From Dehalococcoidia bacterium (GTDB lineage: Bacteria > Chloroflexota > Dehalococcoidia > Lucifugimonadales > GCA-2717565): a stretch of 64,000 bases of DNA. Location of the stretch: NCBI GenBank assembly GCA_009692865.1, contig SHYH01000001.1:9548-73547 (forward strand), written 5' to 3'. This document shows, in pieces, positions 1 to 55,220 of this stretch. Numbering within the stretch: the stretch's first letter is position 1; every line of letters begins with the position of its first letter. The position numbers and the translations under genes are program-made. Below the pieces are notes generated by a model. The model searched no databases, was not told where the DNA came from, and worked only from the letters and a program-made list of their open reading frames with translations.

Positions 1-130
1 TAGATACGGGGCCTTCGGCCACCCCCTTCCTGGAAGGAAGGGGGTCGAGATTCTCTCTGGGGGATACCCCCAGACCCCCCACCAAAGGGACTTCGCCCCT
101 CTGGACTCCCCTTATTTCATCACCCTGTTA
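1..130 (+). mobile_element. Family-A MITE-like palindromic element, copy A1 (left part cut by window edge)
   Basis: Hairpins CCCCCTTCCTGGAAGGAAGGGGG and TCTGGGGGATACCCCCAGA, then right terminal inverted repeat TTTCATCACCCTGTTA. The final TTA (128-130) is the stop codon of the adjacent minus-strand gene. Confidence 0.75.
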
Positions 131-1015
131 GGCCGGGAAGATGGAGGAGACCACCTCTTCAATGCTGCGGTGCACCTGGTGATCGTCGGTGACGGCCCAC
201 GTCACCGCCACCTGGCACGCACGTCGTGGGGAGATCCCCTGGGCAATGAGCTTGCCCGCGTAGATGAGGAGACGGGTGCTAGCCCCCTCTTGAAGGCCGT
301 GGTCCCGCAGGTTACGGACCTTCTCGCCTACCTTGGCCAGGGCCATGGCCGCGTCTGCGTCCACGCCCGATTCGTGCTCGACGATCTTGGCCTCCAGCTC
401 CCGCGGCGGGTAGTCGAACTCGATGGAGACGAACCGCTGCCGGGTACTCTGCTTCAGGTCTTTGAGGGCGCTCTGGTAGCCGGGGTTGTAGGAGATCACC
501 AGAAGGAAATCCTCGTGGGCCTGGAGAAGAATGCCCTGCTTCTCAATGGGCAGGATCCTGCGGTGGTCGGTGAGGGGGTGGATGAGGACTGTGGTGTCCT
601 TGCGTGCCTCTACAATCTCGTCCAGGTAGCAGATGGCCCCCACCTTCACCGCCCGGGTCAGGGGGCCGTCGATCCAGCGAGTGCTATCGTGCTCCAGGAG
701 ATAGCGCCCCACCAGGTCGCTGGACGTCAGGTCTTCGTGGCAGGCGATGGTGATCAAGGCCAGCCGATTATCCAACAAGCCGTCCCCGTCCCCCGCCACT
801 CTAGCGCTGGAGTGGCGTAGGCGCCATGCCATGTACTCGATGAACCGCGTCTTGCCACAGCCCGTGGGCCCCTTGAAGAGAACGGGGAGTTTCTGGGCGT
901 AGGCAGCCTCGAACAGCTCAATCTCGTCCCCTATGGGAACGTAGAAGGGCTCTTCGGTGACCCCGAACTCCTCAATGAGATACTCTTTGTAGAGCTTCGT
1001 CGTCTGCCCTGTCAT
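128..1015 (-). CDS. CbbQ/NirQ/NorQ/GpvN-family MoxR-type AAA+ ATPase
   Basis: 295-aa ORF with Walker A GPTGCGKT and Walker B ICYLDEI. Overall similarity to the CbbQ/NorQ family recognised by eye. Confidence 0.85.
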
Positions 1016-1022
1016 TTGCCTC

Positions 1023-1631
1023 CTATCCTAACCCCTTCCATGCTACCCGTGCCCCCCAGAGCTCTCGGAGTCGCGTGTGCAGTCGCTCCAAGTCTCCGTT
1101 GTTCTGAAGGACCACGTCGGCGTGATTGAGCCGCTCCGCCTGGGTCATCTGGGCATTGATGCGTCCCCGGATCTGCTCCTCGGTCAGGTTGTTGCGCTGC
1201 TGAAGACGCTGGACCACCTTGTCGGCGTCCGTCGTGGTCACCCACACCTCATCCACCAGGTCCTTCCACCCCGCCTCGATGAGGATGGCCGCCTCCACCA
1301 CCACGGCCTTGGCTTCCTTCACCCGCTGCTCCTGGATGATCTCGCTGATGCGCTGGCGGATCTTGGGGTGGGTAATGGCGTTCAGCTTCTCCAGGGCCTT
1401 GGGGTCGCTGAAGACGATGCCGCCCAGCTTCCTGCGATCCACCTCCCGGTTGGGCTGGAGGATGTCCCGCCCAAAGGCCGCCACTAACTCTTTCCACCCC
1501 TGGGTGTCGGGCAGGTAAACGCTGTGCCCTACCCTGTCGGCATCGATGAGAAAGGCGCCCAGGGATTCCAGGAAGCGTGACACCTCGCTCTTGCCGGTCC
1601 CTATGCCTCCGGTCACGCCAATTACAATCAT
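1023..1631 (-). CDS. coaE: Dephospho-CoA kinase
   Basis: N-terminal P-loop [12 protein letters not shown], 202 aa, typical CoaE length and layout. Confidence 0.9.
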
Positions 1632-1751
1632 AACGCTCCTCGAAGATGGACGTTCTCTGGGCCCTTGGCAACCCCTCTACGCCTCACAAGCCCATTTCCG
1701 CATTGTAACCATCGCAGGCAGGGGGGTCAAGACGGGCCTGGGAAGAGGTGC

Positions 1752-1875
1752 AAAGTCCCAGAACAGCCACCTGGGACGAGCAAAGGGTGAGAGTTGTTTG
1801 GGAAGGGCTTATGGGGAACCCTTTCTTACAAGAAAGGGTTCCCCATACCTCTCCTAAAGATCCTGCAACACCCAC
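1752..1875 (+). repeat. Family-D palindromic repeat, copy D1
   Basis: Central 32-nt palindrome GGGGAACCCTTTCTTaCAAGAAAGGGTTCCCC flanked by arms GAGAGTTGTTTGGGAAGGGC / CCTCTCCTAAAGATCC. Related copies at 46429, 57305, 58741 and 60295. Confidence 0.7.
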
Positions 1876-1966
1876 GCTGGCCACCGCCGATACCGGCCCA
1901 GCGGCGGAAGACCTTCCTGTACGTGGGTACAGGGCACGCCCTGCCATGTGGTAAAATGCTTCCGCT

Positions 1967-53785: not shown

Positions 53786-53842
53786 GCGAAACTCCAAGGC
53801 GGAACACTAGGAGCTCACAGAAAAGGCTCTAGGGCCCACTCC

Positions 53843-54358
53843 CTAGGCCGTCGGCCTCCCGAAGGGGTAGCGCCACCGCTCCAACCGCTCCTGCATGACG
53901 CCGGCCACATCCTCCACGCCTCTGTCCAGGTACAGGTCCGGCAGGCTCAGCTCTCGGCCCAAGGGCTGCCGATGCCTTGTGAAGACGATGGTCACCCACC
54001 CCAGGGCCAGGGGTGGCTTGAGGCGCACGCTGGAAACCGAAGAGACGTCGCTCCAGGAAACCTTGCGCTTCCGGTCAAACCCCAGGGCCAGGACAAGGCC
54101 GTCCTCCACCAGCTCCAGGGTGGCCACGCGACGCAGGAGCCCCTGGAGCAGCGGCGGCGCCAGCGTCATGGTGGCAGGGATGGCCACCACCAGAAGGAGC
54201 ATACCCAGAAGGCGTGCCAGGAACACCCACATGCCCGACAACTGCTCCAGGCCCAGGTGGCCCAGCGCCAGGCCCAGCATCATCAGGGTCAGGCCCACTG
54301 CGTTCAACAGCGCCAGCCTTCCCACCCTGGGGTGGTAGGCGACCGTGGGCGTCACCAT
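53843..54358 (-). CDS. Hypothetical 2-TM membrane protein with PH-like cytosolic domain, paralogue 2
   Basis: Same layout as 54381..54881 (RR-rich linker LLRRVATLELVEDGLVLALG..., ...LPDLYLDRGVEDVAGVM). Start trimmed to ATG 54358. Confidence 0.5.
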   Translation of the reverse strand: MVTPTVAYHPRVGRLALLNAVGLTLMMLGLALGHLGLEQLSGMWVFLARLLGMLLLVVAIPATMTLAPPLLQGLLRRVATLELVEDGLVLALGFDRKRKVSWSDVSSVSSVRLKPPLALGWVTIVFTRHRQPLGRELSLPDLYLDRGVEDVAGVMQERLERWRYPFGRPTA

Positions 54359-54380
54359 GCTTGCCCCCTCGCCCTGGCCA

Positions 54381-54881
54381 CTACTTTCCTCGCGAGCGGC
54401 GTTGGCCGCCACCTTGGCCTTTACCAGGAATCAGTGGTTCAATAGCGGCTGCCACTTCATCCACGCTTTTGTCCAGAAACAGCTGAGGGACGAAGACGTC
54501 ACTCCCGAGGGTGCGATGACGCTCTCGGAGGAGCACCGAGACCCATGCGAAGCCCAGGGGCCCTTTCAATTTGGAAGCCCGAACCTCGGCGATGGACTCC
54601 CAGGGAATCTGTTGGGGCCTTCCCACGCCGAGGGTTACGACGAGGCCCTCTTCCCACACCTCCAGGGTGGGACGCCGCCGAAGGTAGCGCTGGAGCAAGG
54701 GCAACACGAAAATGATGGTGCTGACGATGGCCAGACTCTGGACCAGCACCACGGCCAACTGCACCACCCACACGCCTCCCGTGGAACGCCCTACCCACCA
54801 GGCCAGCCCAGAAAGCGACCAGGCGCCCGCCAGAAGCCCCAGGGCTAAGAGGGTTCTCGGGTAAAACTTGGCGCCTATCAT
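54381..54881 (-). CDS. Hypothetical 2-TM membrane protein with PH-like cytosolic domain, paralogue 1
   Basis: LQRYLRRRPTLEVWEEGLVVTLG...IPWESIAEV...VPQLFLDKSVDEVAAAI. Tandem with its paralogue. Confidence 0.5.
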   Translation of the reverse strand: MIGAKFYPRTLLALGLLAGAWSLSGLAWWVGRSTGGVWVVQLAVVLVQSLAIVSTIIFVLPLLQRYLRRRPTLEVWEEGLVVTLGVGRPQQIPWESIAEVRASKLKGPLGFAWVSVLLRERHRTLGSDVFVPQLFLDKSVDEVAAAIEPLIPGKGQGGGQRRSRGK

Positions 54882-55143
54882 CCTGCCTCCTGCAAAGCCC
54901 TATCCTCCAGGCCTAAAGCAAGCGAGAGAGATCTCCGGCGGGGCCTGGCGCAAAACCGCCTCCACCCCCATCCCCTAGACTCACCCCTCCTAAGGTCTTT
55001 CGCCGTCGGGCGGCTGGCGACGATGGCCCATCCTTCAGGAAAGACGCGCCTGGAAAATCCCCCTGGGGGCCACCTGCTAGAGATTCATCATAGGGGGGAG
55101 CCCCAGGGGTGTCAACGCCAGGGAGGGAAGGCGTTCACCTAGC

Positions 55144-55181
55144 AAAAGCAAAAAGGAAGGGGGGGCCCGTAGGCCCCCCCT
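55144..55181 (-). terminator. Rho-independent terminator of groESL
   Basis: Minus strand: GGGGGGGCC tacg GGCCCCCCC followed by TTCCTTTTTGCTTTT. Confidence 0.7.
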
Positions 55182-55220
55182 TTTCGCCCCCTTGGACTCC
55201 CCCCGTTCATCACTCTGCTA
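55182..55220 (+). mobile_element. Family-A element fragment (right end only), copy A12
   Basis: TTTCGCCCCCTTGGACTCCCCCCGTTCATCACTCTGCTA. The terminal CTA is the groEL stop. Confidence 0.55.

Follow-up and report, generated by a model that had tools for sequence, protein, structure and literature searches.

IS5 itself duplicates a 4-bp YTAR-like target, and REPs, each a short single palindrome, are associated with RAYT transposases. In the case of the ERIC elements of enterobacteria, the effect on mRNA stability depends on orientation (PMC2229807). Here we describe a repeated element of ~147 bp, referred to as family A, in a 64,000-nt stretch of the genome of a Dehalococcoidia bacterium (contig SHYH01000001.1, positions 9,548 to 73,547; this whole stretch is called the window). 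Family A is, in all likelihood, a non-autonomous miniature transposable element with inverted repeats (MITE) of the IS5 family type, and it is widespread in uncultured high-GC Dehalococcoidia. The original prediction, made from the letters of the window, had already called it MITE-like, and this reading has held up: the element is short and lacks coding capacity, carries inverted termini between flanking duplications, is dispersed in many copies and both orientations, is missing from empty sites in related genomes, and shares its termini with full-length insertion sequences found elsewhere.

Without the flanking target bases, family A consists of ~141 bp of non-coding DNA with three GC-rich hairpins between the inverted repeats CAGGGTGnTGAAAAA (left) and TTTTTCAnCAGCCTG (right), which are kept in 54 full-length copies from many genomes. 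The copies have a size mode of 146-149 bp and a second class of 164-197 bp. As had been proposed, the element has no coding capacity, its size being far below that needed for a transposase. The consensus of the ends of full-length copies is c-TAG-CAGGGTGnTGAAAAA ... TTTTTCAnCAGCCTG-CTA-g (cTAG-CAGG...CCTG-CTAg), and the four flanking bases are YTAR, with CTAG predominating. The 17-nt terminal inverted repeats described in the original prediction are real as inverted termini, but their outer TAG/CTA is wholly or largely target-site duplication, and the repeat proper starts from CAGG. The hairpins, described there as nested, actually stand side by side inside a long terminal stem. A possible internal promoter was dropped from consideration, as the -10-like TATAAT on the reverse strand between hairpins 1 and 2 is unconserved among copies.

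The termini of family A also bound complete insertion sequences. Metagenome contigs were scanned for these termini with three A/T bases after them, which leaves out the interior of family A; the scan returned 120 loci, including 25 elements of 1218-1382 bp that are bounded by the same 18-nt inverted repeats (TAGCAGGSTGNTGAAAAA). At least 20 homologous near-full-length transposase copies lie between such termini. The encoded proteins of ~365 aa are mutually homologous and 46-80% identical to the transposase of locus L122; they match the Pfam domains DUF772 and DDE_Tnp_1 and the NCBIfam model NF033581 transpos_IS5_4 ("IS5 family transposase"), the latter with 280 bits against a cut-off of 140, and belong to a family of >7,900 proteins at E <= 1e-40. 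An annotated relative is ISAzs10 from Azospirillum sp. B510, which has a 68% identical transposase and the ends TTAG-CAGGCCGCGGAAAAA ... TTTTTCCGCGTCCTG-TTAG. A candidate autonomous element with matching termini was thus seen in metagenomes and, as ISAzs10, in Azospirillum. In 49 two-ended elements with such termini, the bases before the left and the right TA are cc in 31 cases, tt in 10, tc in 4 and ct in 2 (Fisher p = 1e-5; the fourth target base was fixed as G by the search pattern), and this match means that at least YTA is duplicated. A further ~25 short elements (68-280 bp) with the 18-nt IS5-type termini come from unrelated soil, sediment and other metagenomes (L118-L237), so that MITEs have arisen repeatedly from this group of insertion sequences. 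Three of the short elements, L119, L211 and L218 (206 bp), have CCCTCCCCCTGGGAGGGGGGAGGG-type hairpins, too.

Comparison with related genomes provides filled and empty versions of the same sites. Locus L116, whose GroEL is 82% identical to that of the window, is syntenic with window positions 47.5-57 kb and contains zero family A copies vs six in the window. At the end of the peptidase M16 gene, L116 has the empty site CTG-TAG-AGC, whereas the window has CTG-TAA-CAGG...[element]...TTGC-TAG-TGT, with the LLKL* end of the protein left as it was. The spacer after this gene is 15 bp in L116; in the window, it is taken up by a 102-bp deleted copy of family A and a copy of the related family C. The same stop is also filled in L115, by a longer copy in the position and orientation seen in the window. 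This single 245-bp copy (L115 5818-6059) has its two ends exactly at the stops of a 171-aa gene and of the convergent peptidase M16 gene, so that both flanking genes terminate in one element. A clean filled/empty pair is also provided by the stop of the PAC2-family gene: L115, the closest relative found (GroEL 93%), has GAC-CTAG-TCC, and the window has TC-CTAG-[86 bp]-CTAG-TTGG, in which CTAG flanks the insert on either side. At the groEL stop, the window contains a 56-bp fragment of family A that is missing from the orthologues in L115, L116 and L117.

The coincidence of element ends with stop codons is a general property of the family. With genes called in the window and in the loci from other genomes by a crude heuristic based on the G+C content at third codon positions (GC3), 82 element ends face a converging gene within 400 nt; in 32 of these, the terminal TAR is the stop of that gene, and only 2 genes read further in; random-frame truncation would give a ratio of 1:2 and is rejected (p = 1e-13). 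The open reading frames (ORFs) of the window that end at element termini do so at positions 128, 7628, 47516, 49148, 50440 (rnpA), 53517 (peptidase M16), 55218 (groEL) and 57457. Insertion into a stop codon is silent because YTAR holds TAG or TAA and is regenerated on both sides. Unoccupied YTAR sites comprise 191 stop codons and 1111 "intergenic" sites, the latter number being an overestimate in which uncalled genes count as intergenic, and approximately 18 of the 45 full-length copies touch a stop, compared to a lower-bound expectation of 15%. Target availability accounts for much of the stop association, perhaps not for all of it. Clustering of elements, as in the neighboring pair at 53515-53616 and 53625-53790, would be expected because each insertion recreates two YTAR sites.

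These observations can be combined into a mechanism in which an IS5-family DDE transposase supplied in trans would recognise the inverted repeats, excise the element and paste it into YTAR, mostly CTAG, with duplication of at least YTA of the target; we infer that family A has been mobilised by such an IS5-type transposase in this lineage. An insertion at a stop codon leaves the protein unchanged and rebuilds YTAR at both element ends. In genomes with 64-66% GC, stop codons represent a large share of the tolerated targets, and this tolerance, together with the rebuilding of the target, accounts for the frequent termination of genes precisely at the end of an element and for the accumulation of elements side by side. 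The copies later decay through internal deletion, gain or loss of modules and truncation. The family as a whole is old and extends across the lineage of uncultured high-GC Dehalococcoidia, with bursts in particular genomes.

In the window, which has a GC content of 62-70% and contains no tRNA genes, the terminal motif TAGCAGGGTGATGAAAA has 13 matches at <=3 mismatches vs 0.09 expected, and hairpin 1 has 7 matches vs 0 expected. An nhmmer profile trained on seven copies retrieved 12 of the 12 loci that had been listed as sharing one unit, in agreement with the reading of the loci themselves; a 41-nt mini-copy listed at 50402-50442 was missed by the profile and confirmed by direct reading of the sequence. 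The profile also gave five weaker matches that have only the internal core in common. All 13 listed copies therefore stand, but the total rises to 14 copies or fragments with an extra degenerate one at 57367-57460, and the limits of three loci shift to 4531-4723, 36735-36868 and 55165-55220. Both orientations are present, as stated originally. A tblastn search with six transposases belonging to several families revealed no transposase in the window, a non-exhaustive test that agrees with the original prediction. The analysis did not bear out the statement that the repeats occupy most of the intergenic space; they do make up a sizeable share of the non-coding DNA, family A with ~1.75 kb and the relatives sharing its core with ~0.83 kb adding up to ~2.6 kb, or 4% of the window. 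The copies of family A are as follows.

1..130, plus strand: copy cut by the window start (profile-model positions 40-148), starting within an extra CCCCGATAGATRCGGGG module; its right-end TTA (128-130; TAA on the minus strand) provides the stop of a 295-aa ORF at 128..1015 on the minus strand
4531..4723, minus strand: 193-bp variant copy with A-type termini, B-type hairpins (loop TTCC; hairpin 2 ATAGAGGTGTCCCCCAT) and an extra module at 4679
7484..7630, plus strand: canonical 147-bp copy that provides, with its right terminus, the stop of an ORF ending at 7628 on the minus strand
11204..11350, plus strand: canonical 147-bp copy and top profile match (149 bits), 9 bp downstream of the stop of the gene at 11360..12586 on the minus strand
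12705..12856, plus strand: 152-bp copy with divergent flanking genes
20357..20552, plus strand: 196-bp copy with two additional internal modules, including CCCCGATAGATGCGGGG at 20386
22245..22387, plus strand: copy with a degenerate right end, inside which lies the stop of the gene at 22382..23833 on the minus strand
36735..36868, minus strand: variant copy with B-type hairpins and one A-type terminus (TAGCAGGGTGCC), the second terminus being lost
47371..47518, minus strand: canonical 148-bp copy flanked by CTAA/CTAA, the sole window copy of the minority orientation; its TAA at 47516-47518 is the stop of a Jag-like gene, and the syntenic locus L116 is without the element
49003..49150, plus strand: 148-bp copy with the third hairpin replaced; its right terminus is the stop of a 405-aa ORF at 49148..50365 on the minus strand
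50402..50442, plus strand: 41-bp mini-copy, consisting of the left terminus and TTCGACCATCCCCCTG fused directly to CTAG, with a terminal TAG that serves as the stop of rnpA (50440..50781, minus strand)
53515..53616, minus strand: 102-bp derivative without hairpins 1 and 2; its TAA at 53515-53517 is the stop of the peptidase M16 gene
55165..55220, plus strand: truncated copy with the right terminus and hairpin 3, located between groEL and groEL's own terminator hairpin; its TAG at 55218-55220 (minus strand) is the groEL stop codon
57367..57460, minus strand: degenerate 86-bp derivative (CAGGTTGAGGAAGA...CCCCCTTTGCTCGTC) with CTAG on each side, the first TAG being the stop of the PAC2-family gene

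The original assignment of the CCCCGATAGATGCGGGG module to three copies is correct as to their number, but the positions are 20386 (plus strand), 4679 (minus strand) and 1-13, where the module is cut by the window start. The reported loss of the central hairpins at 53515-53616 was borne out, and both this 102-bp copy and the 41-bp one are internal-deletion derivatives; the structure of the latter is consistent with a deletion between two CCTG motifs.

Family A extends far beyond the window. An exact scan with the 22-nt core of hairpin 1, taking one genome per species, yielded at least 114 loci, and, among the matches listed, this core occurs only in metagenome-assembled genomes (MAGs) of Dehalococcoidia/Chloroflexota from groundwater, deep Lake Baikal, hot springs and similar sources. 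In these 114 loci, all from other genomes, the nhmmer profile had at least 217 matches, of which 59 are full length. The matches span at least 30 species-level genomes, across which the termini are conserved. The window groEL product has its closest protein relative at 93% identity, and its named relatives belong to Chloroflexota/Dehalococcoidia. Window copies are 85-94% identical to copies from other species; as for coding DNA, a single window stretch aligns to the listed loci, with 78% identity. With the ascertained hairpin excluded, identity averages 84% (maximum 97%) for copies within a genome and 76% (maximum 95%) between genomes, as would be produced by lineage-specific bursts from masters that change slowly. 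The window copies are old, with 80-85% identity to one another. No published description of family A was found by topic or by literal sequence in a literature search of partial coverage, outside of which lie ISfinder and Dfam, and the main text of a 2024 survey of prokaryotic MITEs makes no mention of Chloroflexota or IS5.

The window also contains relatives of family A that share its hairpin core.

8440-8620 and 24790-24965: copies of family B, with termini GCCCCAAAAGTC / GACTTTTGGGGC
31860-32030, 52030-52165 and 53625-53790: copies of family C

Families B and C have the hairpin order and the ACCATCCCCCTG lead-in of family A and different termini. Modules have apparently been exchanged between the families, as A-type termini are combined with B-type hairpins at 4531-4723 and 36735-36868. 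Candidate explanations of the shared core include recombination among MITEs, capture of a prior palindromic unit and selection on the core.

These mosaics are what would be expected if family A were a REP/BIME-like palindrome spread by a RAYT (Y1) transposase or by recombination, with the hairpin core as the unit and the termini as incidental features. The occurrence of the three-hairpin core with other termini in families B and C also fits this explanation. However, the long conserved inverted termini are identical to those of a DDE insertion sequence, the copies are flanked by duplications and have clean empty sites, and no RAYT gene turned up (no search aimed at RAYT was made), so that a REP-like origin appears highly improbable. 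The least probable account is that of a MITE of the IS630/Tc1-mariner type, in which TA alone would be duplicated at (C)TA(G) sites, an affiliation that had been suggested originally with the addition "or other". The flanks do read C-TA-G, as for IS630, the terminus TA-RCAGGTG may resemble mariner-type ends, and the flanks of family A alone are compatible with duplication of TA as well as of the longer YTAR. Nevertheless, all full-length elements with these termini encode an IS5-family transposase, the base 5' of TA is duplicated as well in the 49-element set, which brings the duplication to at least 3 bp (YTA), and ISAzs10 has TTAG on both sides. The IS630/Tc1 affiliation is accordingly rejected in favor of an IS5-type partner.

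The orientation of the copies brings in a different explanation, namely, that family A, whatever its origin, is a domesticated structured element of the 3' untranslated region (3'-UTR), with copies in one orientation retained for terminating or processing the transcript of the upstream gene or for protecting the 3' end of its mRNA. We consider this unlikely, if with a real chance of being right. Between co-directional genes, transcription enters at end R in 56 copies and at the opposite end in 14 (p = 4e-7), with similar ratios for full-length copies only (23 vs 6), without the most-sampled genome (38 vs 13), by genome (15 vs 5) and in the window (8 vs 1). In the window, orientation flips with the gene strand while GC skew is uniform, and the bias therefore tracks transcription, not replication. 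A palindromic target offers no cue to orientation, so that the bias is most simply read as selection on the transcript, and the 4:1 ratio suggests that orientation-dependent selection may act at the transcript level. A role in the 3'-UTR would also fit the preference for gene 3' ends (25 copies between convergent genes vs 8 between divergent ones), the end-paired folds with three hairpins that both strands adopt in predictions (-84 and -78 kcal/mol, with z of -4.7 and -6.2 vs shuffled sequences), the 91% of proposed pair cells that are paired, a compensatory G:C to A:U change in hairpin 2 that is common to 7 sequences, the excess of G.U over A.C mismatches on the mostly transcribed strand (61 vs 37), and the identity of up to 95% between copies from different species in which neighboring genes are barely alignable as DNA. 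However, covariation is barely above that of controls and could have been inherited from subfamily masters, mismatches occur in 36/40 and 27/40 copies at two positions of the terminal "stem", which suits protein-binding repeats better than a selected RNA helix, and within the hairpins G.U and A.C mismatches are nearly equal in number (17 vs 13). A simple terminator scan of window positions 1-20000 called no family A hairpin, the only call being one of family B at 8505-8527; the AU-rich spacer that follows hairpin 1 or 2 is only weakly U-rich. Rfam 15 gave no match in the whole window at gathering thresholds and, in E-value mode, chance-level matches only for two family A copies. Furthermore, many copies are truncated or internally deleted, and groEL retains its own terminator downstream of the family A fragment. 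The direct tests for RNA-level selection are weak. It is quite doubtful, too, that copies have been co-opted clade-wide, in one orientation, as 3'-UTR modules on stop codons, with the three-hairpin core as the selected unit that is re-mobilised by different transposon ends.

The assignment of family A to IS5-type MITEs has its own difficulties. The envisaged transposase gene bounded by the same repeats was found in metagenomes, as an IS5 gene, but not in the Dehalococcoidia DNA sampled: neither the window nor ~0.9 Mb of DNA from Dehalococcoidia yielded an IS5_4-type transposase. The sole GC-matched insertion sequence examined sits in a host genome that has PEP-CTERM and sigma-54 genes and does not look like Dehalococcoidia. 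Family A and the sampled insertion sequences share 18-20-nt termini only and no interior, and for family A alone the duplicated-base association is weak (Fisher p = 0.12). The 4:1 orientation bias should not arise in a neutral selfish element with a palindromic target, and the three-hairpin core of families A, B and C may have a life of its own.

Several candidates for the Dehalococcoidia partner of family A were rejected. Paired termini located 0.7-4 kb apart in the 114 Dehalococcoidia loci all proved to be neighboring MITEs or ordinary genes, the GC-matched insertion sequence of the L173 type was set aside because its host genome has PEP-CTERM and sigma-54 genes, and the DDE_Tnp_1 gene of L116 has unrelated ends in a locus without a family A copy. 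The ends of the 1.7-kb multicopy insertion sequence of L031/L045 are unrelated to those of family A as well. This 1.7-kb element (L031 225-1924 and L045 6301-8000, 99.6% identity within one Dehalococcoidia genome; 84-87% in two others) carries a 441-aa transposase-like ORF and has the ends GCCCGAATCCACCGAA.

Stop codon usage in the window and in loci L001-L114, according to the crude gene calls, is 354 TAG, 207 TGA and 118 TAA. TAG as the commonest stop is unusual for genomes of ~65% GC, and the MITE does not explain this excess because only ~32 of these stops come from element termini. Other repeats of the window include direct repeats of 150-300 nt with 72-94% identity and ~1.03-1.1 kb spacing at 38900-44000, which represent a run of tandem paralogous genes, and a 125-nt direct repeat with 80% identity at 1750-1874 and 58716-58840, with 57 kb between its copies.

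Family A has practical consequences for the analysis of these genomes. Several MAG contigs start or end inside a copy (L030 3-134, L083 1470-1593 and L094 4929-5063), which suggests that family A breaks short-read assemblies. The repeats also lengthen or fuse ORF calls and can seed spurious protein families, a problem that the original prediction had pointed out for the peptides produced by translation through the repeats and that is illustrated by the 370-aa stop-to-stop ORF at 7628-8740 (minus strand). This ORF, whose GC3 of 0.74 is the lowest among the larger calls, crosses the family B copy at 8440-8620, and its 5' part is probably a repeat-derived over-extension. A family A profile would improve the annotation of this poorly known, uncultured lineage. 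From the biological standpoint, family A is a clear case of a YTAR target making stop codons safe landing sites in a GC-rich genome, such that even the essential genes groEL and rnpA end in transposon-derived DNA with their proteins unchanged, and the orientation bias is a testable hint that some of the copies affect transcripts.

Among the systems described so far, the IS5 insertion sequences of ~1.3 kb (ISAzs10/transpos_IS5_4) have their terminal 18 nt identical to those of family A, (TAG)CAGGSTGNTGAAAAA, with a close variant of these ends in ISAzs10, and, like family A, are YTA(R)-flanked; unlike them, family A has no gene, and it has nothing internal in common with them. REP/BIME elements resemble family A in consisting of GC-rich palindromic units that are intergenic, located near gene 3' ends, modular and mosaic, but family A differs from them in having target duplications and 18-nt inverted termini that match a DDE insertion sequence. 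With the Correia/NEMIS elements of Neisseria, the RUP elements of pneumococcus and the ERIC elements, for which the review PMC2229807 contains no description of copies supplying the stop codons of neighboring genes, family A has in common that it is short, non-coding, multicopy and mostly intergenic, with inverted termini and an end-to-end stem. What sets family A apart from these three is its occurrence in another phylum, its IS5 affiliation, the large fraction of its copies that provide a neighboring gene's stop, the three internal GC-rich hairpins and a target that contains a stop codon.

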